Source: an uncultured Candidatus Saccharibacteria bacterium (GTDB lineage: Bacteria; Patescibacteriota; Minisyncoccia; UBA6257; 1-14-0-10-44-23). Taken from it: a stretch of DNA of 64,000 nt. Below the pieces are notes generated by a model, which did no database searches, was not told the DNA's origin, and saw only the letters and a list, made by a program, of their open reading frames with translations. Positions within the stretch are counted from its first letter, which is position 1, and every line of letters starts with the position of its first letter. The stretch spans positions 159,501-223,500 of the forward strand of contig CAZJVT010000003.1 of NCBI GenBank assembly GCA_964549935.1. Reading direction: 5' to 3'. The translations under genes and the position numbers were made by a program. Below are positions 26,039 to 61,560 of the stretch, in pieces.

Positions 26039-27433
26039 ATGAACAAGACCCAGCACGTCCTCCTCGGCGTAGCTCTCGCCGGCATCCTTCTCGGAAGCGG
26101 CTGCACCTCCCTCGGCCTGCCGCGGGAGGCGACGAAGCCCGCGCCGGTGACCTCGGTGAGCGACGCCACCCCGCCTGGGCCCGACAAGACGATCGGAATG
26201 GACCAGACGGCCCTCGTCGACCTCCAGCTCCCGCCTGCCTCCCTCGTTCCCAGGCCCGTCGAGCCCTCGGACAGGGTGCCGGACATCGACGTCCGGAACT
26301 TCAGCGCCTCCGAGGCGAGCTTGATCGAGGCTCTCCAGCTGCTCCTCGGCCGGACCGGCATCCCCGTGACGGTCGAGACCGGTCTCGACACCACGCGCAT
26401 CTCCGCGTTCGGGCTGTCGGGGAAGCTCTCGGACGTTCTCGACCGGCTTTCCGAAGGGGCAGGCGTCTTCTGGCGCTACCGCAACGGCTCTCTTGTCGTC
26501 TCCGGCGATCGGCCCTTCACCGTCGAGATCCCGCCGGTGATGGGCGACGTGGCCGCCGAGGAGATCGTCCGCGGAATCGAAAGCATGGGCGCGCTCCGCG
26601 TTCGCCTCGACCGGACCGCGAGCCTCATCAGCTATCGCGCCGAGCGTCGTGTCCACGACGTCGTCGTCGACTATCTCGAGAAAATCCGGAAATCCAAGTC
26701 GTTGATCGTGTTCCAGGCTTGGCTCCTGGAGGTCACCCTCAACGACCAGCGCCAGCTCGGCATCAACTGGAACGAGCTCGGCTGGAAGTCGGGCGGCGTG
26801 GCCCTCAGCCTGGCCGGGGGCAGCTCCGTCGTCGGCGGCACCACCTTCGGGGCCGTCTATGGCGGCAACCGCTTCTCCATCGACGGCCTGGTCAGCTTCC
26901 TGCAGACGCAGGGCACTCTTTCGACAGTGTCGAAGCCGTCACTCACCATGATCTCGGGCGGCAAGGCCAAGTTCGAGGTCGGCTCGATCGCCCGCTACGT
27001 CAGCAAGGCCGGTTCCAGCACGACGGGATCGACGGTCACCGGAACGACGGAGACCGAGTCCCTCAAGGTCGGCCTGCAGATGGCCATGACCGGCGACTAC
27101 AGCCAGGGCACGGTCTTCTTCAAGGTGGGCCTCGAGATCTCGGACATCACCCGCTTCGATCAGTACGAAGCCTTCGGGCAGCAGCTGAAGCTCCCCCAGA
27201 CGACCAATCGCCTCCTCGAGACGACGGACCGGGCCCGCCCGGGCGACGTGATCCTCCTCGGCGGCATCGTCAGCACACGCGACCAGGTCGACCGGGACGG
27301 CGTCCCGAGCGGCCTTGGGTTCCTTTTTCCCAGGCTCTTCAACGACCAGACCCAGCGTACCGAGCTGGTCGTCGTCTTGATGCCGAAGGTCATCCGTTTC
27401 GTGGACGCCGCGTCCCAGGAGGCCGCACGATGA
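26039..27433 (+). CDS. Lipoprotein secretin of the type IV pilus/T2SS family (BfpB/PilN(R64)/TcpC-like)
   Basis: Lipobox LLGSGC. Secretin C-domain blocks: LIVFQAWLLEVTLND, PSLTMISGGKAKFEVG, VILLGGIVSTRDQVDRDGVPSGLGFLFP. Confidence 0.9.
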   Translation: MNKTQHVLLGVALAGILLGSGCTSLGLPREATKPAPVTSVSDATPPGPDKTIGMDQTALVDLQLPPASLVPRPVEPSDRVPDIDVRNFSASEASLIEALQLLLGRTGIPVTVETGLDTTRISAFGLSGKLSDVLDRLSEGAGVFWRYRNGSLVVSGDRPFTVEIPPVMGDVAAEEIVRGIESMGALRVRLDRTASLISYRAERRVHDVVVDYLEKIRKSKSLIVFQAWLLEVTLNDQRQLGINWNELGWKSGGVALSLAGGSSVVGGTTFGAVYGGNRFSIDGLVSFLQTQGTLSTVSKPSLTMISGGKAKFEVGSIARYVSKAGSSTTGSTVTGTTETESLKVGLQMAMTGDYSQGTVFFKVGLEISDITRFDQYEAFGQQLKLPQTTNRLLETTDRARPGDVILLGGIVSTRDQVDRDGVPSGLGFLFPRLFNDQTQRTELVVVLMPKVIRFVDAASQEAAR

Positions 27434-28068
27434 GGGTCCGTCATTTCTTCCTTGCCGTCGGCGGGCTCGCTGCCATGACCGGTGTCGCGGTGGCCCAGGC
27501 CCCATCGATCCCGATGGCATCGCCACAGGCCGTGACCTCGTTGCCCCAGTCCGGGCCGCAGCCCGGGCCGCTCTCCCTGACGGTGCCGGCGAGCTCTCCG
27601 GGCTCCCTCAACCCCCTGCAGCCTCGTCCCACTCCGCAGGCCATGACGGCCGCGCCGGCCGCGGGCGCCCAGCCCCCGGCAATCGGTGGCCAGGCGCCGC
27701 CTTTCGGACAGACGCTGCCTGCGCCGCCGGCGCTCAACACGCCGGCCCAGGAGGTGAGCTCGAGCGACCTGTCGACGGTCACGATCACCGCGATCATGGA
27801 CGGCGCGGCGGTCCTACGCACCGCCAACAACTCCTACCAGGTCGCGGACAAGGGCATGCTCAGCCACAACGGGCGGCTTTACGGCGTTCGCGTGAAGGAC
27901 GGCGTGGTCACCCTGTTCGACCGCAACCAGCGGCCGGTCTTCGAGGCGACGGTCGGTTCCGGCGTATCGCCCGAACAGCGGTTCTCGTGGACGCGTGCCC
28001 AGTCGTCGTCGGGCAGCGCAACCGGAGCCCCGCCGGCCCCCGCGCCGGCCCCGCTCAAGACGCCCTGA
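27430..28068 (+). CDS. Secreted pilus-assembly accessory protein (Pro/Ala-rich; pilotin or PilP-like?)
   Basis: Signal peptide MRVRHFFLAVGGLAAMTGVAVAQA; ATGA overlap with secretin stop. Confidence 0.6.
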   Translation: MRVRHFFLAVGGLAAMTGVAVAQAPSIPMASPQAVTSLPQSGPQPGPLSLTVPASSPGSLNPLQPRPTPQAMTAAPAAGAQPPAIGGQAPPFGQTLPAPPALNTPAQEVSSSDLSTVTITAIMDGAAVLRTANNSYQVADKGMLSHNGRLYGVRVKDGVVTLFDRNQRPVFEATVGSGVSPEQRFSWTRAQSSSGSATGAPPAPAPAPLKTP

Positions 28069-28070
28069 CC

Positions 28071-29960
28071 ATGCCGGACGACATCCAGCCGACCGAAGGC
28101 CACCAGGCAACCTCCGAACGGCTTGCGCCCGGCCAGCTCGTGGTCTCCGTGACCATGGGGGACGGGACACGGGTCCAGCGGACCGTCATCGGCGGCGAGG
28201 ACCGGACAGTCCATGCCAGGCCGGCGGAACCGGCCAAGGTCAAGCCATCGCAGCTCGCCGTGGCGACGAAGCAGCAGCGGGTCCTTCATGCCGCCGGCGT
28301 CGACAAGGCGATCACCGAGATCCTGATCTCGATGGGCTTCCTGCCGCCGTCCCAGGCGGAGGCCGGATCGGGCCTGTCGAGGCGGAAGCAGGATCCGGGC
28401 GACCTGGTGAGCCTCCGGCTCCAGCAGAACCTTGGCATGAAGATCATGGGCGTCGAACGCGACGTCATATCGGTCGCCCTGACGAAGGCGGCGGACGACT
28501 TCAAGCGGCAGTTGCTCCTCCTCGAAGCCAGGCGTGCCGGCATCGAGGCGAGCCGGATCGAGATCCTTCCGATCGACCGCATGTCGGCGATCGCGCTGCT
28601 CGGCCAGACCCGCGTCGTGCATCGGGACGTGATCGAGAAGCGGATCCAGCGCCTCACCCGCGATCCGGGAGAGGGCTCCCTGCTGCAGCTCATCATCCAG
28701 GAGATCTTCTCCTACGCGGTGCAGATCGATGCCTCGGACATTTCGGTCAAGGTCGAGCCGAGGCATCTGGAGCAGTCGAACGTCGCCTTTCGCGTCGACG
28801 GCACGATGCAGTACGAGTTCTTCCTTCACCCCGACGTCGCCAAGCCGCTCGCGACCAGGCTGAAGGCGATGGCGAACATCGACTTTTCCGACCGCTCGCG
28901 CCCTCACGACAACCGCATCACCCTGCAGGTGGCCGGCCGCGACATCGACGTCCGCGTCGGCGTCGTCCCCACCGATCCAGGGGAGCTCATCACGATGCGC
29001 CTCCTGGACCCCAGGAAGGTTCTCCATATCGGTGATCTGTTCGGATCGATGCCGGCAACCGTCGCCTATATCCGGAGCTTCAATTCCCAGCCGACGAAGT
29101 CGGGCGGCGTCCTGCTGCTTTCGGGCCCCACGGGCTCAGGCAAGACGACGACCCAGAACGCCATCCTCCTCGACGTCGATCGCACCAAGAAAAAGGTCGT
29201 CACGATCGAGAATCCGGTCGAGTACACGATCCCGATGGCGCATCAGATCCAGGTTCAGACCGACGACCAGTGGGCCGAGGCGATGCGCGCCGTTCTTCGC
29301 CACGATCCCGACGTGATCGCGCTCGGCGAGATGCGCGATCGCCGGACGGCCGAGGCATGCAACTCCATGGCCGAGTCCGGGCACAAGGTCACCGTTACCG
29401 TTCATGCCGACGACGGCCCGCAGACGATCAACCGCTTCGCGGACTTCTTCGACGAGAGCAATCGCAAGCATCAGCTGAGCACTCTCGGCTCGCACATCTT
29501 CGGCGTCGTGAACCAGCGGCTTCTCTCGGCGGTGTGCCCTCATTGCTCGAGCAGCGTCGAGGTAGGCGACGAGGGAGCGCACACCACCCGCGAGATCCAG
29601 ATCGCGACGGAGATCCTCAGGATCCCGTCCCGGATGCAGGTGCGCCGGCCGAACCTCGAGGGCTGCGGCCACTGCAACCATACCGGCTACTTCCGGCGGG
29701 TGCTCTCCGTCGAGCAGATCTTCATCCCGCGCGATCATGGCGTCCGGCGCCAGGTGGTCGAGCGCCTGACCGGCGACCTCGTCCATGAGATCGTGGACAT
29801 CGAAGGGGTCTATTTCAGGAGCCACTCGGACCGGATCGTGGAGCTCCTGCAGCAGGGCTACCTCGACCTTTCGATCGCCGCCGGCGTGGTGGAGGCCACG
29901 GGATACGGCTACCGCCGACGAGGGGAGGCGGCCATCGACGTCCGCCAGATTCTCGTATGA
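28071..29960 (+). CDS. GspE/PilB-family pilus assembly ATPase (BfpD/PilQ(R64)/TcpT-like)
   Basis: Walker A GPTGSGKTT. Tetracysteine CPHC ... CGHC zinc motif. Start ATG 28071 just after stop of upstream gene. Confidence 0.9.
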   Translation: MPDDIQPTEGHQATSERLAPGQLVVSVTMGDGTRVQRTVIGGEDRTVHARPAEPAKVKPSQLAVATKQQRVLHAAGVDKAITEILISMGFLPPSQAEAGSGLSRRKQDPGDLVSLRLQQNLGMKIMGVERDVISVALTKAADDFKRQLLLLEARRAGIEASRIEILPIDRMSAIALLGQTRVVHRDVIEKRIQRLTRDPGEGSLLQLIIQEIFSYAVQIDASDISVKVEPRHLEQSNVAFRVDGTMQYEFFLHPDVAKPLATRLKAMANIDFSDRSRPHDNRITLQVAGRDIDVRVGVVPTDPGELITMRLLDPRKVLHIGDLFGSMPATVAYIRSFNSQPTKSGGVLLLSGPTGSGKTTTQNAILLDVDRTKKKVVTIENPVEYTIPMAHQIQVQTDDQWAEAMRAVLRHDPDVIALGEMRDRRTAEACNSMAESGHKVTVTVHADDGPQTINRFADFFDESNRKHQLSTLGSHIFGVVNQRLLSAVCPHCSSSVEVGDEGAHTTREIQIATEILRIPSRMQVRRPNLEGCGHCNHTGYFRRVLSVEQIFIPRDHGVRRQVVERLTGDLVHEIVDIEGVYFRSHSDRIVELLQQGYLDLSIAAGVVEATGYGYRRRGEAAIDVRQILV

Positions 29961-31186
29961 GCAGGTTCTGGCGAACCTCCTTCATGACTGCCGACCGGCC
30001 GGGCATGCCTGCTCGGCGCCTGGAGAAGGAGTTCTTTCTCCCCGACCAGGGTTCGGTACGCCTCGCGGTCGAGCAGATCGGCGGCCGGGTGATCTCCATC
30101 CGGGAGCGGCGCCTTCGGTGGTGGGACGGCGAGATCTTCACCAAGAGCTATCGGCTTCGGTTCCTCCGGACCCTCGGCTTCTTCGTCACCTCGAATTCGC
30201 CCGGCGTCGCCCTGGTGCGAGTCATCGAGACCGAGGAGGACATGCGAAAGCGCGCTCACCTGAACTCGGCCATCGAAGTGATCAACCGAGGCGGGGACTT
30301 CACCCAGGCGGTCCGCTCCATCAAGCTGTTCGACCGCTCGGTGATCGCAATCCTCGAGGCCGGGGAAAGGGTAGGGCGCCTCAGGGAAGCCATCGCCGCC
30401 GCCACCAGCCATGTCGAGAAGCGCGGCAAGAGCCTGAAGATGGTCATGTCTGCGATGGCCTGGTTCTGGATCGACGTCATCTCGACTGTTGCGACCGTGT
30501 TCGAGGTTCATTTCCACGCTCTTCCCTGGATCCGGGAAAACGCCTTCGACGGCGTCAGCGCCGCGAAGAAGGCCGAGATCATGGCTGCCCTCGACCGCGC
30601 GCAGGCGATCAACCTCGGTTTCATGGGGGTGGTCGCGGCCGTCGGCGTCCTGGCGCTTGCGGTCCTGTGGTCGACCTTCCTCGGTCGCGGGCGCGACGAC
30701 AGCGGAAAGCGCAACGTGATGAGCCTGATCCCAGGTCTCAGCACGATGGTCGTTTCCGCCGGCATCGCCGAGACCTTCTCGATCGTCTCACGGATGGTGG
30801 CTGGCTCCGCGCCCTTCTCGGAAGCGGTACGTGCCGCGGAACAGGCGACGATCGTCGGCAGCGTCTCCGGGTTCTGGAAGCGCGTCGGCGAGATGATCGG
30901 GAACGGCTGGGGCATCGACAAGGCGATGGCCAGGCATCCGCTGAGCCATGCCGAACGGATGGAGATCTCCGGCCACCGCAACCTGAGCCAGCTCGTCGAC
31001 GTGATGTCCTCCATCGCCGAGACCCGGGAGCAGACGGCCGAGCGTTACCTCAAGATGATCTCGAGCCTGTCCATCCTGGGGGTCCTGCTGTTCGGAGCCG
31101 GGGTCACCCTCAACGTCCTCTACGTCGTGTGGGTCCAGAACGAAGGCTTCACCAGCTCGATGCAGTCGATCATGGGCGGCGGCTGA
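29957..31186 (+). CDS. GspF/PilC-family inner-membrane platform protein (BfpE/PilR(R64)/TcpE-like)
   Basis: ~409 aa polytopic. Duplicated T2SS-F-like halves. ATGA overlap with ATPase. Confidence 0.85.
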   Translation: MSRFWRTSFMTADRPGMPARRLEKEFFLPDQGSVRLAVEQIGGRVISIRERRLRWWDGEIFTKSYRLRFLRTLGFFVTSNSPGVALVRVIETEEDMRKRAHLNSAIEVINRGGDFTQAVRSIKLFDRSVIAILEAGERVGRLREAIAAATSHVEKRGKSLKMVMSAMAWFWIDVISTVATVFEVHFHALPWIRENAFDGVSAAKKAEIMAALDRAQAINLGFMGVVAAVGVLALAVLWSTFLGRGRDDSGKRNVMSLIPGLSTMVVSAGIAETFSIVSRMVAGSAPFSEAVRAAEQATIVGSVSGFWKRVGEMIGNGWGIDKAMARHPLSHAERMEISGHRNLSQLVDVMSSIAETREQTAERYLKMISSLSILGVLLFGAGVTLNVLYVVWVQNEGFTSSMQSIMGGG

Positions 31187-32254: not shown

Positions 32255-32742
32255 ATCCTCTCGTCCGCATCCGGTCCGCTCTCGTCCGCTTCCTGGACGG
32301 TCTCGACGAAACCCGCGGGACGGCCCTTGTCTCCCTCGCTTGGGTCGTCGCCCTGGTCTTTACCGTGGGCGCCGGCTGGCAGGTCCTCGAAGTACGCCGG
32401 ACCTCCGAGCAGATGAAGGTCCTCCAGGTCGGCGCTACCGTGAAGCTGGCTGTGGGCGAGGCTCCGGTCACGGCCGAGGAGATGGGCCGGGTCGCGGCGC
32501 AGGTGAAGCTCATGCATCCCTCGCTGAACGTCGCTTCGGACCCTGAGGGGATCCGCATCACGGCACAGGGGGAAGAGCGCTTCTTCGATTTCCGCTACGC
32601 GATCGCCACCGCGATGAACGCCCTTCCGGACGCCCGATGGAAAGCCCAGACGCTCATGCTCTGCGGCGGAGCGGGATGCCAGGGCTCCAACTACCTCGGC
32701 GTCCTCAAGGCGACCCGCGTGAAGGTGAACGTCACGGGGTAG
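32251..32742 (+). CDS. Bitopic membrane pilus-assembly protein (PilN/PilO/BfpL-like candidate)
   Basis: N-terminal TM ALVSLAWVVALVFTVGAGW; C-terminal Cys pair. Confidence 0.55.
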   Translation: MNPLVRIRSALVRFLDGLDETRGTALVSLAWVVALVFTVGAGWQVLEVRRTSEQMKVLQVGATVKLAVGEAPVTAEEMGRVAAQVKLMHPSLNVASDPEGIRITAQGEERFFDFRYAIATAMNALPDARWKAQTLMLCGGAGCQGSNYLGVLKATRVKVNVTG

Positions 32743-32835: not shown

Positions 32836-33570
32836 ATGCGTGCCCAGATGACGAACCTCCTTTCCGGTCTCGGCGTTGCCGGTTTGCCGATCAGGTCCGT
32901 GTCGGCCCGGACTTCCGCGAATGCCGGCTTCGGCACCTCCGCGGTCCTCCTCGTCGTCGTTCTCATCGCAGCGATCGGCGCCTTCTTCGCCTACTCGACC
33001 CGCGGCAGCAACGTGACCTCCGCCCAGTCGACGAATTCCATCGGGGCGACCACGATCATCGACCAGGGCACCCAGATGCGCTCCGGCTTCGAGCGCATGC
33101 TGGCGAACGGCTCGGCCGCGAGCCAGGTGACCTTCGACACGGCGGCGACTACCGGCCTGTTCAATCCGACGACCGGTGGCACGGGCGACCAGCCGCCGCC
33201 GCAGCGGAACCTGACGGACGAGGCGATCGCGGGCTCGGCCCCCTTCGCGGCGGCCGTCACGACCTACAGCTACAAGACGGGCGTGACCGGTCCCGCGAAC
33301 GTCGGCACCGCTGCCGGCCTCAAGTACGGCGTGTTCCTCCCGGGCGTGAAGCTGGCCGTCTGCCAGGCGATCAACAACCAGCTCTACTCGGATTCGCTGA
33401 GCGCGACGCCGGTGGCGAGCGGTCTTGCCGTCACGGCCTTCGTCGGCGGCGCGGCTGTCGACCTGACCGCCGGCGCCATGGCCGCCGGCCTCAGCCAGCG
33501 CTCCGAGGGCTGCATCGGCACCACCAGCGCCAACCAGTACGTCTACTACAAGGTCATGTACGTGCAGTAA
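32836..33570 (+). CDS. Type IVb major prepilin (long leader, about 30 aa, ending ...SANAG|FGTSAVLLVVVLIAAIGAFFAY; C-terminal Cys pair)
   Basis: SD AGGAGA 9 nt upstream of ATG 32836. Hydrophobic alpha1-N after G|F. C...C disulfide region LAVCQ ... EGCIG. Confidence 0.7.
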   Translation: MRAQMTNLLSGLGVAGLPIRSVSARTSANAGFGTSAVLLVVVLIAAIGAFFAYSTRGSNVTSAQSTNSIGATTIIDQGTQMRSGFERMLANGSAASQVTFDTAATTGLFNPTTGGTGDQPPPQRNLTDEAIAGSAPFAAAVTTYSYKTGVTGPANVGTAAGLKYGVFLPGVKLAVCQAINNQLYSDSLSATPVASGLAVTAFVGGAAVDLTAGAMAAGLSQRSEGCIGTTSANQYVYYKVMYVQ

Positions 33571-33572
33571 CG

Positions 33573-34076
33573 ATGGGCTGGATCAGCGCACTCATCGCCG
33601 CGATCGTCCTGAGCGGCGTCGTCGCCGCCTCCCAGGCGCGGAGCGGATCGACGGCCGCGAAGGTCCAGCGCATCGACACGGCTGTCGCCTCGCTCAATGC
33701 GCAGGCGAACATGACCCGTCAGGTGCTGACGCAATGCGCGCTCGACTATCCGTCGGGCGACAACGGCACCGGCTTCACCATCGCCTACCCGGCAGCGACG
33801 GCCGCAACGGCGCTCACCGGGCTGCAGTGCCCGGGGGCGCCTGCCGGCTTCAAGGACTTCTGGGGTGGCCGCAACGGCGTTTTCGAACCCGTGGCGCCAT
33901 CGGGCTTCGGCGCCTGGACCTACCTGAACAATGCCACCGGCGTCAGCCTGACGATCACGGCGGCGAGCGCCGATGCGGCTCTCGTCGCCGCCATGGACCG
34001 GGTGGCAGCGGCTTATTCGGCCACCGAGGCCACCCGCAGCGGGCTTTCACTCACCGTCTGGATCATCCGGCTATGA
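33573..34076 (+). CDS. Minor pilin-like protein
   Basis: N-terminal hydrophobic helix MGWISALIAAIVLSGVVAAS; Cys pair. Confidence 0.55.
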   Translation: MGWISALIAAIVLSGVVAASQARSGSTAAKVQRIDTAVASLNAQANMTRQVLTQCALDYPSGDNGTGFTIAYPAATAATALTGLQCPGAPAGFKDFWGGRNGVFEPVAPSGFGAWTYLNNATGVSLTITAASADAALVAAMDRVAAAYSATEATRSGLSLTVWIIRL

Positions 34077-34732
34077 GCAACGCGCGCAATCGCCAGGGCG
34101 GTTTCGCCCAGACCATCGCCATCGTCGCGATCGGCCTCGCGGCCGCCATCGGTCTTTCGGCTTCCTTCGCCTTCCGTCAGGCCAACGCCACCTCGCGCGG
34201 CCTCCAGAAGGAGCAGGTGAGGGGAGACCTCAGCCAGCTCGCCAAGCAGCTGGCGCTGATGTCGACGCCGGATTCTTCCGGGATCCTGACCGCCCCGGCC
34301 TTCGTCACGCCGACCTCGGGGACGCCGCCGACGAACGGCGGCAAGCTCCCGTCTTCCATCGCGACACGCACGACGACGCCCCAGGGAACCCCGTTCGGCT
34401 ACTGCCCGGTCAAGCTCGGCGATACCGCGGGCGCGGGGAACCGGATCGCCACCGGCGGAACGCCGGGTAGCTCGACGATCCTGTTCGCCCTGATCTCTCC
34501 CGGCGCCGACAGGGTCTTCCAGACCACATGCCCCGATGCGATCGCCGGCACCAGCTTAGGCGACGACGCGATCTTTCGAGCCCGCCACAGCGACGTGCAG
34601 CGCGTGGTCTACGAGGCGGCTGCCGACCGGCTGGGCCATAGCAGCTTCCAGGCCGCGGAGATGCGTTGCGCCGTCGACGGCAAGCTTTTCCAGCCATTCG
34701 CCACGGGCAAGGACGCCCGCGGCTGCAAATAG
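34073..34732 (+). CDS. Minor pilin-like protein (class III signal-like QGG|FAQTIAIVAIGLAAAIG)
   Basis: ATGA overlap with upstream pilin. G|FA motif shared with 32836 and 35271 genes. Confidence 0.6.
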   Translation: MSNARNRQGGFAQTIAIVAIGLAAAIGLSASFAFRQANATSRGLQKEQVRGDLSQLAKQLALMSTPDSSGILTAPAFVTPTSGTPPTNGGKLPSSIATRTTTPQGTPFGYCPVKLGDTAGAGNRIATGGTPGSSTILFALISPGADRVFQTTCPDAIAGTSLGDDAIFRARHSDVQRVVYEAAADRLGHSSFQAAEMRCAVDGKLFQPFATGKDARGCK

Positions 34733-34741
34733 GACCAGCAG

Positions 34742-35212
34742 ATGACCAATCGCATTCCCGTGAAGATCTCGCTCTCGCCCGAATACGACCGCTCCTGGGG
34801 CCCGCCGGGCTACGCCAAGCCCGGCGACGCTGGGTTCGATCTCCGCGCCCTCATCAAGGCGCCGATCGAGATCCGCGCCGAAGAGCAGCACCTGATCCCG
34901 ACCGGCCTCCGCATCGCCGTGCCGCCGGGGTTCGAGCTGCAGGTCCGGCCGCGGTCGGGCCTGGCGCTCAAGCACGGCCTGACGATCGTCAACTCGCCGG
35001 GCACGGTCGATTCCGGCTATCGCGGCGAGGTCGTCATCATCGCCTATCGCCTCAAGGGGCTCGGCGACGACAGCAAGCTCGTCGTCAAGCCAGGCGACCG
35101 CATCGCCCAGGGCGTCATCGCGCCGGTCTACCAGGCCGACTTCGATGTTGTCGACGAGCTCGACGAGACCGAGCGCGGGAGCAGCGGCTTCGGCTCCAGC
35201 GGCAGCAACTGA
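34742..35212 (+). CDS. dut: dUTP diphosphatase (trimeric dUTPase) embedded in the pilus operon
   Basis: All five dUTPase motifs present: GDAGFDL, RPRSGLALKHG, GTVDSGYRGEV, GDRIAQG, RGSSGFGSSG. 10-nt gap to upstream pilin gene, 59 nt to downstream pilin gene. Confidence 0.9.
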   Translation: MTNRIPVKISLSPEYDRSWGPPGYAKPGDAGFDLRALIKAPIEIRAEEQHLIPTGLRIAVPPGFELQVRPRSGLALKHGLTIVNSPGTVDSGYRGEVVIIAYRLKGLGDDSKLVVKPGDRIAQGVIAPVYQADFDVVDELDETERGSSGFGSSGSN

Positions 35213-35270
35213 TCCTTCGACCGGAAGCGCGGCCGGCATGGGTGCCGCGATCATGCAGAAGAGGTGTGCG

Positions 35271-37541
35271 ATGTTCAGCTTCATCAAGACCGGCTTCGGG
35301 ACCCGAGAAAGCCAGCGGGGTTTCGCCGCCGCGACCGTCCTGAGCGGGATCCTCCTCGCCGGCCTCGCCGCCGGCGTCATGTATTCGGGCTGGTCGTCGA
35401 CTCAGCGCACCACCGCCTCCCTGACCAAGTCGTCCAACAACGACTCGCTGATGTCGCAGGTCCGGGCGGCGATCATCTCGGAGCACGCCGATCTCGACGG
35501 CGACGGCACGCCGGAAGGTCCGGCGCCGCTGACCGGGGTCACGCCCATCCCGACTGGCGGCGGGCAGATCCCGGCGAGCTCGAAGGCGCCGAAGACCGAT
35601 GGCTGGGGCACCGCCTTCGGCTATTGCGCCTTCAAGAACGGCTCCGGCGCCGATCGCGCCGGATACATCCGGAACACGGCGACCTCGACCGGCGGCGAGA
35701 TCAGCTTCGCGATCATCTCCGCCGGCTCCGACAAGACGATCCAGACCACCTGCGCGCAGGCACTGACCCAGTCGGCGCAGGGCGACGACAAGCTCGCCAC
35801 ATACTCGCTCGCCGACGTGACGCTGTCTGGCGTCACCTTCAGCGGGGCCGGCTCGGGCACCAACTCCACCGACGTCCAGAACAAGCAGGTCGCCTGCGTC
35901 GCGAGCGGGAAGCTCTACGCAGGCGTCGGCGCGACCGGAGCGGATGCGAACGGCTGCATCGCGCCGGCCGGTTCCGGCGGCGGCATCGTCACCGACGCGC
36001 AGGGCCGCCTGGCGGTCTCCTGCACGCATATCTCGCAGCTCGTGACCAATCCGAGCGACGGCGAGTACATGCTCCTCGGCGTTCCGACCGACGGGTCGCT
36101 GCCGGCGATGTATCCGACGGAATGCGACTTCACCACCTGGGGTGGGAAGTGGACGATGGTCGCGAAGTACGACCCGACAGCGGCCTGCCCGGCCACGATG
36201 AAGGCTGGCGGCGTCTGCTCGGCGCCGTCGGACGGCATCGACCTGATGAACATGAGCCGGATCTCGAACGACATGACGTCGGTCCGGGCTCTCACGAACG
36301 CGCTTCGCTACCTGAAGCCGTTCAGCGAGATCATGATGAAGGACGCGAACGGGTCCTTCATCGTCTGGAACTGCGGCGGGAACCAGAGCCGGTCATGGTA
36401 CGAGCGCTACCTCGTCTATGGCGGAGCCGAGACCTGCTCGATCAGCAGCTCGACCTTCCATAATGGCGGGACCAAGTCGCTCAACACGCTGACGCCGAGG
36501 TTCCAGGTCAACCTGACCGGATTCCGGGAGCTGACTTCGACGCCGTTTTCCTGGTGGTCCTGTCCCGCCTACTCGAATTGCGACGGCGACTGGACCATCC
36601 GGACGACGGTGCAGCGCGACTATCCGGGATATTCGGGCAACTACTATTTCAATGCCGGCTATGTCTACATGCCGGCGCGCGGGACCAACGGCGTGGCCGA
36701 CTGGTACCTCAAGGTCTGCGATCTCTCGACGCTTGAGACGCGTGACGTCGTCTCGCCGATCGGCGGCACCTACGCGAATGGGTGCCAGGCGAGCTGGATC
36801 AGCACCTTCCGGGGACCGTGGAGCTTCACGTCCGGCCCGCGTCACGACTGGAGCTACGCCGTCGACTATCCCGGCGACGAAAACAACATCCTTCCCAGCC
36901 TGGCGCATCTCGCCACGCAGCCGCGGCCGAACCAGAACTGGGCACCGGACTATCAGCTCACGATTGTCTCGCCCGCGGCCATCAACGGCACCGGCTGGCA
37001 TCAGCGACTGAACTTTTCGGCACCGAATCCGTCCGACAGCAACAACGTCTGCAATTTCGGCTATGGCCAGTACGACGCCTACTGGGGCAACGGCGCCGCT
37101 GCCGCGGGAGTCTTCTTCCGACCTACCAGCTATCTCGTCTACGGCAACGGCACGCTCTCGAGCGTCCAGATGGGCTACGCCGGTCCGTGGCAGGATGCCT
37201 ATGCCTACTGGGAGTTCACCGGCGGCACCGGACAGAACTTCGCCATCCCCGGCTATGTCGACCTCAAGTATTCGATGATCAACGGCTCGGGCAACGGGCG
37301 GTCGATCTGTGCCGGTACCCGCAAGCTCTACTGGGGGTACCTGCATCAGGATGGCTACTGCGTCTTCCAGCAATACAAGGACTTCCATGCTTCCGGATAC
37401 TGGATGTGGCAGGACGGATGCCAGGCCCAGCAGGCTTTCAACAAGACCGAGACCGCGTTCAACGCGCTGCCGGGAAGCGTGCCCCTGGGGTTCGTGAAGT
37501 CCTTCATGCCGACGGACATCCGGAAGATCTATATCCGGTGA
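35271..37541 (+). CDS. Large pilin-like protein (756 aa): N-terminal prepilin-type segment RG|FAAATVLSGILLAGLAAGVMY, Cys-rich middle, Trp/Tyr-rich C-terminal domain. Putative tip adhesin / initiator minor pilin (PilV/TcpB/CofB analogue).
   Basis: SD AAGAGG 7 nt before ATG 35271. Multiple Cys pairs. Aromatic-rich C-terminus suggests carbohydrate binding. Confidence 0.65.
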   Translation: MFSFIKTGFGTRESQRGFAAATVLSGILLAGLAAGVMYSGWSSTQRTTASLTKSSNNDSLMSQVRAAIISEHADLDGDGTPEGPAPLTGVTPIPTGGGQIPASSKAPKTDGWGTAFGYCAFKNGSGADRAGYIRNTATSTGGEISFAIISAGSDKTIQTTCAQALTQSAQGDDKLATYSLADVTLSGVTFSGAGSGTNSTDVQNKQVACVASGKLYAGVGATGADANGCIAPAGSGGGIVTDAQGRLAVSCTHISQLVTNPSDGEYMLLGVPTDGSLPAMYPTECDFTTWGGKWTMVAKYDPTAACPATMKAGGVCSAPSDGIDLMNMSRISNDMTSVRALTNALRYLKPFSEIMMKDANGSFIVWNCGGNQSRSWYERYLVYGGAETCSISSSTFHNGGTKSLNTLTPRFQVNLTGFRELTSTPFSWWSCPAYSNCDGDWTIRTTVQRDYPGYSGNYYFNAGYVYMPARGTNGVADWYLKVCDLSTLETRDVVSPIGGTYANGCQASWISTFRGPWSFTSGPRHDWSYAVDYPGDENNILPSLAHLATQPRPNQNWAPDYQLTIVSPAAINGTGWHQRLNFSAPNPSDSNNVCNFGYGQYDAYWGNGAAAAGVFFRPTSYLVYGNGTLSSVQMGYAGPWQDAYAYWEFTGGTGQNFAIPGYVDLKYSMINGSGNGRSICAGTRKLYWGYLHQDGYCVFQQYKDFHASGYWMWQDGCQAQQAFNKTETAFNALPGSVPLGFVKSFMPTDIRKIYIR

Positions 37542-37677
37542 CAGACCGGCCGGCCGGTTCCACCGCTCTTGAACCGGCCGGCTGACGTCGAAAAGGCTTG
37601 ACACCGTCGTTTCTTCCTTGCCCCGTGTAAAACTGTCCGCTATATGCTTTAGGCGACAGAATCATACGGAGCAGACG

Positions 37678-38451
37678 ATGACCACGCATCCCAGCACCCC
37701 GGAGGCTCAAGCCCAGGTGGCTCGGACCTGCGTCGTTCGCTTCTTCCAGACTTTGAAGCCCGAAAACGGACCGCTGAACGAGCTGCCGCCGGTCCTGGCT
37801 AAGCTTCGGACCGCCGCGTTGGCCGCTGGGCTCCTGGGCGCTCTCGGCGCCCATCCGGGTCCCGCGCATGCCGGCGATCCCGCCTCGCAGCTCCGGCTGA
37901 GGGTTGTCGCCGCTGCCGCGATGCAGGGTCTCGTCGCCGACCGGTCCGGACTTCTGCTCGATCTCGAGCTCGCCGAGGCGGCCGGGCGAGCTCAGGCGGC
38001 GCTCCTGGACAAGGGCCCGGGCTCCAGCTCCGGCTGGGCGTCCCGAGACCGCGCGATCGAGGCCAAGACCGGCTACGTGGCGTCGGCGCGGATGCCTGTC
38101 GTGACCTGGCGGAAGGAGTTTCGCGAGTCAGCCGTGCCGGACGCGCGACCGGGCGAGGAATGCGCGGTTCTGGTCACTGCATTCACCGGCTTCCCTGGCG
38201 GCAAGCCCGCCGACATCGCGACGCTGTTCTGCCGGGGGCGCGAAGGCTGGCGCCTGGTGGACATGGGCGACTGGGCGAGGGTCTACGAGTCCCTCCGGGA
38301 TGCGGGGGCCGAGATGCGGAATGCCGCTGCTTCGCCGGCGCCGGTCCATACCGGCGAAAGCGGGGAGCCCTGCCTGGAGACCTCCGAGGAGATCCAGGTC
38401 GGCGGCCGCACGGAGACCGCGTTCGGCATCGCCTGCCGCATGCCGTCGTAA
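37678..38451 (+). CDS. Secreted hypothetical protein, paralog of 39652..40360
   Basis: N-terminal VVRFFQTLKP motif then hydrophobic AALAAGLLGALGA; C-terminal block GEECAVLVTAFTGFPGG ... GWRLVDMG. Confidence 0.6.
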   Translation: MTTHPSTPEAQAQVARTCVVRFFQTLKPENGPLNELPPVLAKLRTAALAAGLLGALGAHPGPAHAGDPASQLRLRVVAAAAMQGLVADRSGLLLDLELAEAAGRAQAALLDKGPGSSSGWASRDRAIEAKTGYVASARMPVVTWRKEFRESAVPDARPGEECAVLVTAFTGFPGGKPADIATLFCRGREGWRLVDMGDWARVYESLRDAGAEMRNAAASPAPVHTGESGEPCLETSEEIQVGGRTETAFGIACRMPS

Positions 38452-38477
38452 CAGCGAAGTTCCTGGAAAATGCCTGA

Positions 38478-38508
38478 GGGCGGCGGATCGATCCGCCGCC
38501 CTTCTTCA
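38478..38508 (+). terminator. Rho-independent terminator: perfect 24-bp palindrome GGGCGGCGGATCGATCCGCCGCCC followed by TTCTTC
   Basis: Read directly, 27 nt after stop of 37678..38451. Confidence 0.6.
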
Positions 38509-38602
38509 TGCCGGCGCGCAGCCCCATGCAAGGGGCTTTGGCGCTTTCTTGGAACGCATGATAAACTGTATTCGCACTTATATTCACCAGGAGCCGTTCG
38601 TC

Positions 38603-38935
38603 ATGACCCTGCACAACGCCAACGCCCTGCCGATGAAAGGCACCTATCGCTCGGTGCCCCTGGCTCTCGGCTGCGCGCTCGCGATCAGCGCCGAGGCCGG
38701 CGCGGCCGTCCTGGGCTACGAGGACGAGCGGTTCAAGGATACGACCCGGGTCCTGCTCTATACCGCGAGCAACAAGATGGTGGCGCAGCTGAAATCGGGC
38801 CGCGCGATCGATCTGGGCGAGGTCGATGTCCAGACCGCGGAGGACATCAAGGGCCTTCGCACCCTCGTCATCTCCCGTCCAGGCGAGAACGCCGGCGAGC
38901 TCGACAGCCAGTTCGTCAGCATCCGACGCATCTAG
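38603..38935 (+). CDS. Small secreted protein (110 aa)
   Basis: SD AGGAG 8 nt before ATG; signal peptide LALGCALAISAEAGAA. Confidence 0.55.
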   Translation: MTLHNANALPMKGTYRSVPLALGCALAISAEAGAAVLGYEDERFKDTTRVLLYTASNKMVAQLKSGRAIDLGEVDVQTAEDIKGLRTLVISRPGENAGELDSQFVSIRRI

Positions 38936-38966
38936 GCCGTTTCCCCAGGTCCAAAGGAGACCTCCG

Positions 38967-39641
38967 ATGAGCACCGCCAACGCCTTCGTCGCCAGCTTCT
39001 TCGCCGGACTCCGTGCCGAGCCCCTCAAGGCTGCCGACAGGGAGTCCGAGAGCCGCACGCCGATCCTCGATCGCCTGCGCGGCGTGGTCGCCGTGGCCAT
39101 CGTCGCCGCGGTCCTGGCACCGACCGGTGCCCAGGCCCAGTCCCTCGGCATCAATACCCCGACGATCATGGGCATCCTCGGCGCCGCCGGCGGCGCATGG
39201 GGCGGCAGCCAGATCGGCCGCGGCGCCGGCAAGACCGCGGCGATCGCCGTCGGCACGCTGCTCGGTAGCGGCCTCGGATGGGAGGCTGGGAAGTACCTGG
39301 ACTCCCAGGGCGAGGCGGCGAAGGTCGCCCTTTCCCAGGCTCAGCTCGGTCAGCGCGTCGCCTGGCAGGACCAGGGCGCGTCCGGCTACTTCATGCCGAT
39401 CCGCGAAGGCGTCTCGATGCAGACCGGGCTGCAGTGCCGCGAGTACCAGACCGAGATCGTCGTGGGCGGGCAGCGCCAGGCCGGCTACGGAACCGCCTGC
39501 CTGCAGCCGGACGGCCACTGGCAGATCGTTTCCTCGGGCCAGGCTCGCCAGGGCGCCCAGTACAATCCGGCGCCGGCCTACGGACAGCCGATGCCTACCT
39601 ATGCCGGCCAGACCGGAATGAGCTACGGCTCGCGCTACTAG
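38967..39641 (+). CDS. Glycine-zipper membrane/surface protein (17-kDa-antigen / SlyB-like Gly-zipper) with Gln/Tyr-rich C-terminus
   Basis: GILGAAGGAWGGSQIGRGAGKTAAIAVGTLLGSGLGW; SD AAAGGAGA; N-terminal FVASFFAGLR motif. Confidence 0.6.
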   Translation: MSTANAFVASFFAGLRAEPLKAADRESESRTPILDRLRGVVAVAIVAAVLAPTGAQAQSLGINTPTIMGILGAAGGAWGGSQIGRGAGKTAAIAVGTLLGSGLGWEAGKYLDSQGEAAKVALSQAQLGQRVAWQDQGASGYFMPIREGVSMQTGLQCREYQTEIVVGGQRQAGYGTACLQPDGHWQIVSSGQARQGAQYNPAPAYGQPMPTYAGQTGMSYGSRY

Positions 39642-39651
39642 GTCCTCGAGA

Positions 39652-40360
39652 GATGACCGAAGCGGTACGCGATCGAACCTCCGCGAGCGACCGGGGAGCC
39701 GCAAGCGCCCTGGTCGCTTCCTTCTTCCGGCACCTGCGACCTGTTGACGATGCTCTCCCGCGGGTCCTGCGCCGGCTCCGCATCGCCGCTCTCGCGATCG
39801 GCCTGCTGTCGACCACGGCCTTCTCGACGTCATCCGTGGCGGATGCCGGGCCCGGCGACGGGCTCAGGCTCGCGACCGCGGCCGCCCTCCAGGCCGTCAC
39901 CGGCGAGCGGGACGGCATGACCTTCGACCTCGATGCCCTCGACGCAGCAAGCCGGGCGCATATGGCTCTCCTCGAAACGGTGTCGAGCGGCCGGACCGGT
40001 GCCGCAAGGGCCTGGACAGGCGACGACGGCCGGACCAGCGGCAAGACGCTGCTCGCGTCCGTGTCTCGTATCGGACAGGGCAAGAGCTTCGAGGACGGGA
40101 AGGACAGAAGCGGCGCGGAATGCGCGGCCTTGATATCGGCGGCCAGCTTCAGCGGCCGTGGCCCCATGGTCTCGGCGACACTCGTCTTTTGCAGGGCGTC
40201 GGGCGAAAGATGGGAGCTCGTGGATGCGGGCTCCAATGTCTCGACTCTTCAGGAGCTGCACAAGAAGCTCGCCGATGCTCTCGCGCGCCCGGACCTGCCG
40301 CGTGCGAGTGCCGAGGCGACCAGCCAGTCCGGCATGTCCGGCATCGGCAGCAGTCTCTGA
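39652..40360 (+). CDS. Secreted hypothetical protein, paralog of 37678..38451
   Basis: LVASFFRHLRP motif then LRIAALAIGLLS; C-terminal GAECAALISAASFSGRG ... RWELVDAG. Confidence 0.6.
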
Positions 40361-40402
40361 AATCGAAGTCGTAGCTTTCGGTCAGCCGCTTCGCCGCAAG
40401 CG

Positions 40403-42127
40403 TCAGCCGGCGAGGCCACCGGCCAACTCGGCATCGACGACGGGCGCCGACCCGGTGCTCTCGATCATGGCGAGCGTTCTCCTGCCGGCCGGATCCATCG
40501 CTGCCAGCAGATCCTCGGCCAGGTTCCTTGCCGTCGAATTCCGGAGATGATCGACCAGCGTCCTGCCCGCCGCGACGACGGCGCGATCGATGTCAGAAAT
40601 CGACAGCCGGTCCGCGTGCGGGACCCGAAGCATGGCAATCCTGGCGGCCGCCTCGAGATCCTCGGAATGGCGCCAGGACCGCTCGACGTCCAGAAGCTCC
40701 CTCGGCGACAGCGCGTGCCAGCTCCGGCCCTTCGCCGTGAGCCTCATGCTCTCGTCGACGAGACGGAGCTCGGCGAAGCGTTCCGCGTGGTCGACCCAGG
40801 TGCTCGGCGAACCCAGCCTCATCGGCGGGCCCTGGAGCCGTTCGAGGCAGGGGCCTCTGGTCAGGGCGACGAAGACCGACTCCTGGATATCGTAGCCACG
40901 GAACCCAGGAGCGATCGCGAGCTGGCTCTGAACCTGCGATCTCGTTCCAGCGGGCGTGACCTGGCGCTTCAGCGGGATCTCTCCCGATGAGCCGAGGGCC
41001 GCTGGCCAGGGAACCCGAATGACGGCGACCTCCTGGACATGAGCCGCGATCGCGTCATAGGCGAGGCGATAGACGATCGAATGGCATTTGCGGCGGAGAT
41101 CGGCGCCGATTTCAGGAATGAAAGGTGCCGGGGCGATCGGATGGAGGGCCTCATGGACCTGGAGGCGATCCATGGGAAGGAATGCGCCTCCCCGAAGCTG
41201 CATCATGTCGCAAAGCCGGTCGAAGGTGTCTTCCGCGAGCTGGCTCGACATCGTCCTTGGATAGGAGATGAGGCCGTCCTGATACAGCTCCTGAAGGGAA
41301 GCCATGATCGACGGATGCGGTGCGAACGTCTCTCGCTTGATCGCGTCGATCGCCGAATCCAGCGCCGGCATGGGCGAGGGGTTTGGAGATCTCTCTCCTT
41401 CCAACGGAGGCATTGCGCTGCCGTCGGCGATCGCCAGCAGCCTGGTCGCCCTGTCGCGGCCGGCAACGGGAATGGTGGCGGAAAAGTCAGGACCTCCGGA
41501 GGCAGATCTCCTCCGTATCGTCACCTCGCCTATCGGGAGCCTTTCGTCATGGGCGGCACCAAGCAAGGCGGTAAGGACCCGGCCGACGGCAATGCCGCGT
41601 CCCGTGCTCCTGTGACGGCTGGAATAGGTCGCCCCGAGGAGGCGGTCGTGCGCGCTCCTGGCAAACCCAGGTATGGCTGCGCCAGGATTGAAGATCTCGG
41701 CGACCTCTAGGGCTCGCCTGATGGACCGCGTATCGATCGAGGAGGGCCGGACCCGGTAGATCGGGCCCCGGAACCCCGATTGAAGCAAGGACCTGGCGGC
41801 GTCCGCGGCGATGACCTCTCCCTCGTCGTCAGCGTCCGTCATCAGCAGGACGGCATGACGATTGACCGCGGCCGATACGATCGCATCGAGCCGATCCTGC
41901 TTGCGCGGCGACCTCGCATGCTCGATGCCCTCGGCGTCGATGCCGACGAGCGACAGGTCGCGGGGACTCGCCATGAGATGGCCCATGGTCGCGACGATCC
42001 ACGGCAGCGTTCCGCCCCAGAGTTCGTTCGCGATTGTCCGGAAGGCGTTTCTCATGGCCTGGAGCTGCCCGAACGACTCGATGACCACGAGCGGAGAGAC
42101 CGGTCCCCGCAGATCGTGAAGCCTCAC
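40403..42127 (-). CDS. Topoisomerase IA-like Toprim-domain protein (short, divergent)
   Basis: LVVIESFGQ ... ATMGH ... LMTDADDEGE (Toprim DxD) and active-site-like GLISYPRT (compare GxITYxRTD). Confidence 0.65.
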   Translation of the reverse strand: MRLHDLRGPVSPLVVIESFGQLQAMRNAFRTIANELWGGTLPWIVATMGHLMASPRDLSLVGIDAEGIEHARSPRKQDRLDAIVSAAVNRHAVLLMTDADDEGEVIAADAARSLLQSGFRGPIYRVRPSSIDTRSIRRALEVAEIFNPGAAIPGFARSAHDRLLGATYSSRHRSTGRGIAVGRVLTALLGAAHDERLPIGEVTIRRRSASGGPDFSATIPVAGRDRATRLLAIADGSAMPPLEGERSPNPSPMPALDSAIDAIKRETFAPHPSIMASLQELYQDGLISYPRTMSSQLAEDTFDRLCDMMQLRGGAFLPMDRLQVHEALHPIAPAPFIPEIGADLRRKCHSIVYRLAYDAIAAHVQEVAVIRVPWPAALGSSGEIPLKRQVTPAGTRSQVQSQLAIAPGFRGYDIQESVFVALTRGPCLERLQGPPMRLGSPSTWVDHAERFAELRLVDESMRLTAKGRSWHALSPRELLDVERSWRHSEDLEAAARIAMLRVPHADRLSISDIDRAVVAAGRTLVDHLRNSTARNLAEDLLAAMDPAGRRTLAMIESTGSAPVVDAELAGGLAG

Positions 42128-60813: not shown

Positions 60814-61560
60814 TCAGGAGATGAGGCCGGCGACGTCCGCCGCATGAGCGATCAGCGCTGCGATGCCAAGGAATGGCGCGAGCCGAAGTCTCCAGGACGA
60901 GCGTTCGTCCGCCTTCAGCATGAAGAAGGGAGCGAGCGCGAGGGCGGAAGCGACCGAGACGGCGATCAGCACCGGCGCCATGCCCAGCAGGGCGCCCATC
61001 CCGAGAACCATCTTGGCGTCTCCGCCGCCGATGAGATCGCGCATGGAGATCTCCTCGCCGAGCCTTTGGCGCGCCATCGCCAGGAAGAAAGCCGACCCCT
61101 CGACCGTGAGCCATCCAACGGCAGCGCCGAGGATCGCATCGCTCGGGAAGAGGGGCCAGAAGGCGTCGAGCCACGGAACGGCGACCGGCGCCAGGAGGCC
61201 GAGCCAGAGAAGGGAGCCGGTCAATGCCGGAGGAAGCTGTCCGGTCCTTGCGTCGGCGATCATGAGCATGGCGACGAGCGCGAAGGCGGCGGCATGGACG
61301 GCGCCGACGACCGTAGCTCCATGGATCATCACCGGCATCGCCACGATCGCGGAGAGCATGAGCCTGAGGGCGAGGTCCTCGCCGAGGCCCGATCGCACGC
61401 AGGCTCGGACGACGTCACCGATCTCGTGGCCCTCGATATGACGGTCGCGCTCGATGCAGTCGGCGAGGGTCGAGCTCAGCCTGATCGAGCCGGGGCAGGC
61501 AACGAAGGCCAGGGCACCGGCGGCGGCGGCGGCGCCGAGGGTCTGGAGGATCATTGTCAT
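60814..61560 (-). CDS. Prepilin peptidase (A24 family, short form without N-terminal Zn/methyltransferase domain)
   Basis: Catalytic Asp motif GGGDAKM and polytopic TM profile. Inner ATG MTMILQTLG verified at rc 61558-61560. The upstream part of ORF 60814..61944 is Arg/Pro junk. Confidence 0.85.
   Translation of the reverse strand: MTMILQTLGAAAAAGALAFVACPGSIRLSSTLADCIERDRHIEGHEIGDVVRACVRSGLGEDLALRLMLSAIVAMPVMIHGATVVGAVHAAAFALVAMLMIADARTGQLPPALTGSLLWLGLLAPVAVPWLDAFWPLFPSDAILGAAVGWLTVEGSAFFLAMARQRLGEEISMRDLIGGGDAKMVLGMGALLGMAPVLIAVSVASALALAPFFMLKADERSSWRLRLAPFLGIAALIAHAADVAGLIS

Follow-up and report, generated by a model that had tools for sequence, protein, structure and literature searches.

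A candidate modular minor pilin with a putative receptor-binding head in the type IV pilus-like operon of an apparent mobile element

Results

A 64,000-nucleotide stretch of DNA from an uncultured Candidatus Saccharibacteria bacterium (contig CAZJVT010000003.1 of assembly GCA_964549935.1, positions 159,501 to 223,500; hereafter, the window) contains a type IV pilus-like operon, and the last pilin-like gene of this operon encodes the protein studied here, which we call the target (35271..37541, + strand, stop codon included). An earlier note on this DNA had described the product as a large minor pilin with a Cys- and aromatic-rich C-terminal domain, and had proposed that it initiates pilus assembly and acts as a tip adhesin. 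Our analysis indicates a modular pilin-like protein that probably carries a receptor-binding head. Translation from the ATG at 35271 gives 756 residues, with the stop codon at 37541, while the longest form of the open reading frame begins at 35145 and has 798 residues. The start at 35271 is favored because the longer form would overlap a dUTPase gene that ends at 35212. A ribosome-binding site, AAGAGG, read from the sequence (35259..35264, +), lies 6 nucleotides 5′ of this ATG, and genes called independently on a 7.9-kb metagenome contig of identical sequence include one for the same 756-residue protein (P0001), which supports the start. Third-position GC (guanine plus cytosine) is 0.87, like that of the neighboring genes, and fits coding sequence. 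The reading frame proposed in the earlier note is therefore real.

The protein begins with a hydrophilic leader of 17 residues, MFSFIKTGFGTRESQRG (35271..35321, +), that ends in Gly17 and is followed by a tract of 24 uncharged or hydrophobic residues, FAAATVLSGILLAGLAAGVMYSGW. Cleavage by a prepilin peptidase is predicted between this Gly and the Phe that follows it (MFSFIKTGFGTRESQRG/FAAATVLSGILLAGLAAGVMYSGW, where the slash marks the site, here and below). Class III signal peptides consist of a hydrophilic leader ending in Gly or Ala and ~21 hydrophobic residues that start a helix of ~50 residues (PMC8179133). The target has both elements: its leader ends in Gly17, and AlphaFold2, with an alignment of 35 homologous sequences, predicts a single 53-residue helix from Phe18 to residue 70 (alpha1; 35322..35480, +; block predicted local distance difference test score, pLDDT, 89-97). 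The first 24 residues of this helix are hydrophobic (alpha1N) and the remainder is amphipathic. The globular part of the N-terminal module, or N-domain, spans residues 71-190 in the AlphaFold2 model and the alignments (35481..35840, +), with block pLDDT of 86-98 over residues 21-180. It contains four β-strands (residues 117-122, 132-134, 144-150, and 174-179) that come after a loop with DxDxDG and GGGxxP…APKxD motifs, so that the predicted fold of the N-domain, with a helix and then a four-stranded sheet, looks pilin-like. The pilin-like N terminus described in the earlier note is supported by this anatomy, and the alpha1 helix, which that note had said a structure prediction would have to show, is confidently predicted.

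Conserved features of the globular part include the DLDGDG loop (residues 74-79), the motifs GGGQIP...APKTD..G..GYC and FAIISAGSDKTIQTTC, and the cysteine pair C119 and C161. The DLDGDG sequence (window 35490-35507) comes directly after alpha1, is represented by a nearly invariant DxDxDG across the family of N-domains described below, and to us looks like a calcium-binding loop. A linker follows (35841..35975, +; from the alignment, pLDDT <50), with a Cys loop formed by C209 and C229 (CVASGKLYAGVGATGADANGC). We place the end of the pilin module at this loop because a 219-residue paralog of the module, encoded upstream in the same operon, ends with the same loop (CxxxGKL…GxDAxGC).

The region beyond the pilin module is rich in cysteine and aromatic residues, and contains the peptides quoted in the earlier note. 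The target has 18 Cys residues, 17 of which are invariant among three homologues (55-59% identical), and residues 236-756 comprise 3.6% Trp, 6.7% Tyr, and 4.2% Phe. For Trp and Tyr, these values are about two- to three-fold above average protein composition. The best-conserved part of the protein is an intelectin/fibrinogen-like motif at residues 247-300 (36009..36170, +; SC..I....DGEY.L....CDFTTWGGKWTMVAKY, with Cys251 and Cys285), which shows 80-83% identity among the homologues, compared with 41-65% further downstream. This motif carries the pattern C...CDxTTxGGxW. The NCBIfam model NF040941 (‘fibrinogen-like YCDxxxxGGGW domain’), which has a cut-off of 30 bits, gives the target 20.1 bits and the homologue P0006 39.9 bits at the aligned position. 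The best PDB sequence matches of the motif are the lectin XEEL, which is an intelectin, and MFAP4, with E-values of 0.11-0.6. An hhalign comparison of a four-sequence profile with human intelectin-1, the sequence of which was checked against 4wmq, gave 93.6% probability and an E-value of 2e-7 over 50 columns. The Cys pair and CDM-T-GGGWT motif that mark the N-terminal intelectin subdomain are found in residues 247-300, and the alignment with this segment of human intelectin-1 includes the Cys pair and CDxT(T/S)xGGxWTLVA but extends over ~50 residues only.

The remaining ~455 residues (301-756; 36171..37538, +) form an orphan region that is rich in Cys and Trp/Tyr, has a conserved end (...DIRKIYIR), and is the presumed receptor-binding part of the protein. 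This region was found only in P0001-P0003, in P0006, and in the fragment P0024 (144 residues). P0006 is 715 residues long and sits in a similar run of pilin genes that adjoins a lytic transglycosylase. The orphan region has no match in Pfam (E-values up to 10), PHROGs, the PDB, or the phage collection, a profile of its last 166 residues found nothing in the PDB, and a profile of the region after the pilin module retrieved only the three known homologues from 5.8 billion proteins. Family scans of the target with Pfam, NCBIfam, and PHROGs likewise gave nothing beyond the sub-threshold NF040941 match. We considered whether residues 250-756 could be a single expanded intelectin/fibrinogen domain, with NGAAAAGVFFRP corresponding to NCA..GGWW, SICAGTR to ALCAGMR, and the final KIYIR to the last strand of the domain. 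These leads were not supported, and the candidate was rejected because hhalign aligns only 50 residues with intelectin-1 and gives 0.4% for a provisional sequence of the fibrinogen gamma C-domain. The lectin-like fold proposed in the earlier note is supported only in part: the one similarity detected is the 50-residue intelectin/fibrinogen-like motif at residues 247-300, which lies outside the aromatic-rich C-terminal stretch to which that note had pointed, and this stretch matches nothing. ‘Lectin-like’ is a reasonable guess for the head as a whole, suggested by the motif, by the aromatic and Cys richness, and by analogy with the heads of related proteins. Positions 34700-40500 contain no direct or inverted repeats of the shufflon kind, only short matches at chance level, which confirms the absence of a shufflon reported earlier. 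With the reading frame, the Cys and Trp/Tyr content, and the missing shufflon all holding, the earlier description of the sequence was accurate.

Upstream of the target, and on the same (+) strand, the operon, as delimited by third-position GC and family scans, encodes the parts of a pilus assembly machine. These are a secretin (26039..27433; Pfam Secretin E 1e-20; nearest NCBIfam model MshL, E 3.9e-29, below cut-off), a GspE/PilB-type assembly ATPase with an uncertain start codon (27987..29960; Pfam T2SSE E 1.9e-67; NCBIfam GspE E 6.6e-70, below cut-off), and a GspF/PilC-type platform protein (29957..31186; weak matches to NCBIfam GspF, HofC, ComGB, and PilC) that is homologous to an annotated type II secretion system F-family protein of a Rhodoferax plasmid. 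Two accessory genes follow (31278-32132 and 32206-32742), for proteins of 284 and 178 residues with one membrane-spanning segment each, and the 284-residue gene is conserved in homologous operons. All of the matches to the machinery are well below the NCBIfam equivalog cut-offs, and the pilus system is therefore divergent.

Four pilin-like genes come after the machinery, with loci and proteins in our collection designated by L and P numbers, respectively. The putative major pilin (32836..33570, +; 244 residues from this start) has a long leader ending NAG/FGTSAVLLVVVLIAAIG (…NAG/FGTSAVLL…), and its homologues occupy the corresponding place in the operons of L001, L002, L042, L043, L049, and L050. 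A small pilin-like protein of 167 residues (33573..34076, +; MG/WISA) is next, followed by the 219-residue paralog (34073..34732, +; MSNARNRQGG/FAQTIAIV...), which has no extra domain and is 32% identical to the first ~230 residues of the target. In at least seven independent loci, a gene of the 167-residue type is found just upstream of the gene or genes for the N-domain family, and only a paralog of the 219-residue type ever lies between them. The major pilin, the 167-residue pilin, and the family protein or proteins occur in this order in L001, L002, L042, L043, L047, L049, and L050. The earlier note had stated that the pilins of the operon share one G/FA cleavage context with the target. 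This statement holds for the 219-residue paralog (QGG/FAQT) but not for the major pilin (NAG/FGTS) or the 167-residue protein (MG/WISA). Glu is absent from position +5 of all four pilin-like proteins (N termini within 32836-35321), as it is from the pilin-like proteins of the Rhodoferax operon, and no pilin family model matches the pilin-like proteins of either operon. The whole pilus system thus seems to be a divergent class with a system-wide departure from canonical pilins.

An A24-family prepilin peptidase is encoded 23 kb from the operon on the opposite strand (60814..61560, -; ~248 residues from MTMILQ...; Pfam Peptidase_A24 E 3.1e-10). It is intact and has both catalytic Asp motifs (DARTGQLP and GGGDAKM). 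A prepilin peptidase, an assembly ATPase, a platform protein, and a secretin are therefore encoded together here, as they are in L042 and L049. The peptidase gene lies on the minus strand between genes for a Gly_rich_2-domain protein (59412-60845) and an LPD7-domain protein (61583-62644), and R64 too has an LPD7-domain protein among its transfer genes. The dUTPase gene (34742-35212, +; NCBIfam dUTP diphosphatase E 3.8e-50, above cut-off) separates the 219-residue paralog from the target. The syntenic metagenome locus L001 instead has the dUTPase gene directly after the target gene, so the dUTPase gene is linked to the pilin cluster without a fixed position. Downstream of the target, three genes (37618-38451, 38826-39641, and ~39650-40360) encode proteins with related N termini (FF..L.P...LP.VL..LR.AALA.GLL). 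Two of them, the first and the third, are paralogous to each other (33% identity, E 5e-21), and the first is kept after the pilin cluster in L001; the second gene has a weak match to a 17-kDa surface-antigen domain. These proteins may be envelope lipoproteins or pilus accessory proteins.

The N-domain of the target is the shared part of a large set of proteins. No Pfam or NCBIfam model at all covers it, in the target or in 35 relatives, and the only name found for its relatives in their sources is ‘hypothetical protein’. A profile search of 1.84 billion representative proteins (clusters at 50% identity) gave 675 matches with E ≤ 1e-3, 420 of them with E ≤ 1e-10. Nearly all of the best 150 matches cover only residues ~5-190 of the query, in host proteins of 144 to 2,611 residues. 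A scan of a set of species-representative genomes added 34 loci, with open reading frames of up to ~3,600 residues and best matches that are 26-45% identical, in Alphaproteobacteria (Micavibrio, Hyphomicrobium, Stella, Stappia, Devosia, Microvirga, and Aquamicrobium), Bdellovibrionales, and Noviherbaspirillum. The N termini of 122 family members could be scored, with a terminus counted as prepilin-like if a charged residue is followed by Gly and then by at least 19 uncharged residues. About 60 of the 122 are prepilin-like, with the motif placed as it is in the target, and the target itself belongs to this kind and not to the Sec-like kind. In both prepilin-like and Sec-like members, a hydrophobic segment lies ~35 residues before the DxDxDG loop. 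Glu is absent from position +5 in 104 family N termini selected with a loose motif rule that admitted some Sec-like ones.

Beyond the shared N-domain, the relatives carry different heads. These include Peptidase_S74, an endosialidase or tail-fiber chaperone module (three of the eight relatives scanned), DUF7483 with SPRY, RCC1 repeats, C1q (E 5e-13), and BclA_C. P0004 and P0005 have only the N-domain in common with the target and are wholly different after residue ~230. The presence of different heads on one N-domain suggests that the C-terminal region of the target, too, is a binding head. It is common for family genes to stand in tandem, in sets of two or three whose C-terminal heads differ (L047 604-13326; L002 5105-10153; L021, L028, L033, and L037), an arrangement that may allow binding specificity to vary where no shufflon is present. 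L047 has three family genes in tandem, each bearing S74, and directly after them an A24 prepilin peptidase gene. L043 (IMGVR_UViG_3300013105_000843, 129.6 kb), which is filed as viral, contains a homologue of the major pilin, a pilin of the 167-residue type, and three family genes, and is more likely to be a plasmid or integrative element than a phage. Several short members (P0015, P0018, P0036, P0053, and P0056) have a motif after the N-domain, AG..C..P.G.LARD..G....C, that resembles residues 332-361 of R64 PilV (L044 19791-21215); the target does not have this motif.

A homologous operon, L042, is carried by a conjugative plasmid of 257 kb from Rhodoferax ferrireducens T118 (NC_007901), which is typed MOBH and MPF_T. 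Its genes are, in order, a response regulator, two secretins, the ATPase, the F-family platform protein, two hypothetical proteins, a PPIase (peptidyl-prolyl isomerase), two pilins, a pilin of the 167-residue type, and a 1,049-residue family protein. Genes annotated as a tail fiber assembly protein, a sulfotransferase, and an adenylyl-sulfate kinase come next (L042 18845-20908), which may point to folding with the help of a chaperone and perhaps to a sulfation step connected with the pilus head. L049 has the same order with the full machinery, and ends with a 1,273-residue family protein. The wider window also looks like a mobile element. It contains an integrase (8491-9609), the only one found, as well as an SRAP-domain gene (14947-16266), two HipA-family kinases (17644-18945 and 19509-20945), and a UmuD-like gene (21480-22118), all upstream of the pilus operon. 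Other genes of the window encode a topoisomerase, a RecD2-like helicase, an ATP-dependent ligase, RecJ, and the LPD7-domain protein. A megablast search of a plasmid collection with 20 kb of this sequence returned nothing, and a literature search for this type of operon (PRTRC plus pilus) and for fibrinogen-like pilins found nothing relevant.

Discussion

We propose, with moderate confidence, that the target is a modular minor pilin with a C-terminal receptor-binding head on the type IV pilus of a mobile element, and that it is probably displayed on a pilus made by that element. A pilin module with extra domains is the known design of modular pilins and type IVb minor pilins (PMC8179133; PMC6048534). 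The large minor-pilin architecture suggested in the earlier note appears largely right, as the gene encodes a pilin module with extra domains, comes last among the pilin genes of an operon for pilus assembly, and shares the window with a prepilin peptidase. In this process, the A24 peptidase would remove the 17-residue leader after Gly17, and alpha1N, judging from the predicted fold, would anchor the target at first in the inner membrane and afterwards in the core of the pilus that the secretin, ATPase, and platform protein assemble. The distal tip is the most likely location because the bulky 520-residue C-terminal region cannot pack along the shaft. There, the target would probably form a tip or priming complex with the 167-residue protein and the 219-residue paralog, as conserved synteny and the precedents of CofB/TcpB and GspK suggest (PMC6048534; PMC8179133).

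The disulfide-rich head, with its intelectin/fibrinogen-like motif and then the orphan Trp/Tyr-rich domain, would bind a surface ligand, possibly or even probably a glycan. The 17 invariant Cys residues and a weak thioredoxin-like match encoded in the element (45161-46054) were counted as extracellular features. The pilus most likely attaches its host cell either to surfaces or to other cells, in the latter case for mating-pair stabilization or recipient recognition. Given the mobile-element context and the homologous operon on a conjugative plasmid, attachment between cells for transfer is the use we consider most likely, with adhesion to surfaces or to a host as a possible alternative. The lectin, tip, and initiator roles named in the earlier note, together with recipient specificity, are what we infer from these features.

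Several observations weigh against this interpretation. The residue at position +5 of the target is Thr rather than Glu, no Pfam or NCBIfam pilin or N-methylation model (PF07963, IPR012902, or TIGR02532) matches the target or 35 relatives, and hhalign detects no relation to the pilins of its own operon. The family profile has no detectable relation to R64 PilV (11.6%) or PilS (4.3%) in hhalign. In the head, the remainder of the intelectin/fibrinogen domain, including its calcium/ligand region, was not detected: the intelectin-1 alignment ends after 50 residues, and the low score of the provisional fibrinogen gamma sequence was noted above. An AlphaFold2 model of the full-length protein from a three-sequence alignment had a pLDDT of 27, was unusable, and led to no conclusion. 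At least 36 of the 122 scorable family N termini do not have the prepilin motif and instead look like Sec signal peptides with an AxA site, including those of proteins at the same operon position in L049 (10001-13822) and on the Rhodoferax plasmid (L042 14905-18054). Because these Sec-like members hold the same position, the N-domain can apparently function without a pilin alpha1N. Finally, none of the 34 family loci from the genome collection has a homologue of the ATPase, secretin, or platform protein within 10 kb, and no type IV secretion (conjugation) genes were seen within the 64-kb window.

The comparison with known systems helps to place the target. Modular pilins such as Streptococcus sanguinis PilB, with a vWA module, and PilC, with a lectin module, share with it a class III-like signal, an alpha1 helix of ~50 residues, a linker, and a bulky, presumed binding module; such proteins should be displayed at the tip of the pilus, and were collected through the IPR012902 N-methylation motif (PMC8179133). 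Unlike these proteins, the target and its whole family have neither the N-methylation motif nor Glu5, and the extra module of the target is an orphan that has not been catalogued. The type IVb proteins CofB, TcpB, and LngB are also large minor pilins encoded in pilus operons, with a long leader and a pilin domain followed by C-terminal domains, which are β-rich or lectin-like, and the CofB tip is trimeric (PMC6048534). Where these systems have a single minor pilin, the operon of the target encodes three pilin-like proteins in addition to the target, and its proteins do not have Glu5. C1q, BclA-C, and S74-chaperoned fiber heads form trimers, and the heads of several relatives of the target thus recall the trimeric tip of CofB. 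PDB profile searches with two alignments recovered neither CofB/TcpB nor any other solved pilin, and Foldseek found nothing.

PilV of R64 (IncI1) is likewise a large pilin-like adhesin encoded by the last pilin gene in the pilus operon of a mobile element, and the R64 gene order of secretin, ATPase, platform, major pilin, and adhesin is roughly parallel. However, R64 varies its adhesin by a shufflon, whereas the family of the target varies by different C-terminal heads in different, often tandem, genes; Shufflon_N has no Pfam match in the target and no Rci-type recombinase gene is adjacent, the integrase mentioned above being the only one. A relation to TcpB, CofB, or PilV, which the earlier note had drawn on as models, is thus undetectable by sequence in the PDB profile searches and the hhalign comparison. 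Tip adhesins of the PilY1 type, which are not pilins, are also large and need minor pilins for their display, and the Sec-signal versions in the family would depend on minor pilins in the same manner. The DxDxDG loop, with its resemblance to calcium-binding loops, may be a further point in common. Unlike PilY1, with which it shares no detected sequence similarity, the target starts with a prepilin-like rather than a Sec-like N terminus. On this evidence, the target would function like a modular or type IVb minor pilin and would resemble R64 PilV in role, while being a detectable member of none of these sequence families.

The Sec-like relatives raise the possibility that the target is a pilus-associated adhesin that is not polymerized as a pilin, with an N-domain that docks on minor pilins at the tip, in the way that PilY1 and the secreted CofJ and TcpF rely on minor pilins, and a hydrophobic N terminus that serves only for export or as a temporary anchor. 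The many AxA signals in the family, their equal spacing of ~35 residues to the DxDxDG loop, their operon position in L049 and Rhodoferax, and the failure of pilin models to match all fit this idea, and there is precedent for secreted proteins that attach to a minor pilin at the tip (PMC6048534). The globular N-domain may indeed dock on a pilus tip even when the protein itself is not polymerized. In the target, however, Gly occupies position -1 and Phe position +1, and a hydrophobic tract of 24 residues runs without a break within a predicted 53-residue helix, which is longer than a typical Sec h-region, and its 219-residue paralog has the same design and nothing else, so we regard docking as unlikely for this protein, although it is the alternative we take most seriously. 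A component or cargo of a type II secretion-like machine, pseudopilin-like or a surface protein that is secreted or kept on the cell surface, is a clearly less probable identity. The ATPase does match GspE best among NCBIfam models, the platform protein matches GspF, and no retraction ATPase was seen in the operon, but these matches are far below equivalog cut-offs, the nearest model for the secretin is the pilus-type MshL, families like GspC, GspL, and GspM were not found in Pfam and NCBIfam scans, and a 244-residue major-pilin-like gene with several minor-pilin-like genes fits a pilus better.

About equally improbable, or slightly more so, is that the C-terminal region is an enzyme, for example one that degrades glycans or acts on cell walls, delivered by the pilus. 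In Myxococcus, contact-dependent killing has been associated with pilus tips (PMC12075869), the predatory Micavibrio and Bdellovibrionales have members of the family, and an orphan region with a fold left undefined by prediction could accommodate an enzyme. Nevertheless, no catalytic family matches it, the only similarity detected is to a lectin-type motif, and the other heads in the family are binding or fiber modules. An origin as a phage tail fiber or receptor-binding protein, or a remnant of one that is anchored in the membrane and has no link to a pilus, is very hard to credit. Peptidase_S74 in relatives, the gene for a ‘tail fiber assembly protein’ after the Rhodoferax homologue, the locus in a contig filed as viral, and the adjoining dUTPase gene could all be taken as traces of phage. 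Set against them, neither the target nor its neighbors match PHROGs, a tblastn search of 50,697 phage records gave no hit, the window yielded no identifiable phage structural genes, and synteny with the pilus machinery is tight and conserved.

As a modular pilin, the target is of a known kind in a new form, and the more interesting result is the broader family: unnamed, without Glu5, with prepilin and Sec forms, and with swappable heads. This family comprises at least 420 clusters (50% identity, E below 1e-10) and spans Alphaproteobacteria, Betaproteobacteria, and the predatory Bdellovibrionales and Micavibrio. Surveys of modular pilins would miss it because they used the canonical N-methylation motif (PMC8179133), which is absent here together with Glu5. 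We suggest, only tentatively, that the N-domain could define a large family of Glu5-less pilin or tip-docking modules, a universal adaptor, in prepilin and Sec-exported forms, that mounts interchangeable receptor-binding heads of phage and innate-immunity types, among them intelectin/fibrinogen-like, C1q, BclA-C, and SPRY heads, endosialidase-chaperoned fibers, and RCC1 propellers, on type IV pili, and with which mobile elements would choose the cells to which they attach.

Adhesive pilus tips decide which cells and surfaces a bacterium or mobile element can reach. If our interpretation is correct, it would add a widespread carrier module for diverse binding heads, a candidate determinant of host range or recipient range for a class of pili encoded by mobile elements, and an intelectin-type motif in a bacterial surface filament. 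The existence of prepilin and Sec versions of one module could also be of use in testing how adhesins that are not pilins come to be mounted on pilus tips.

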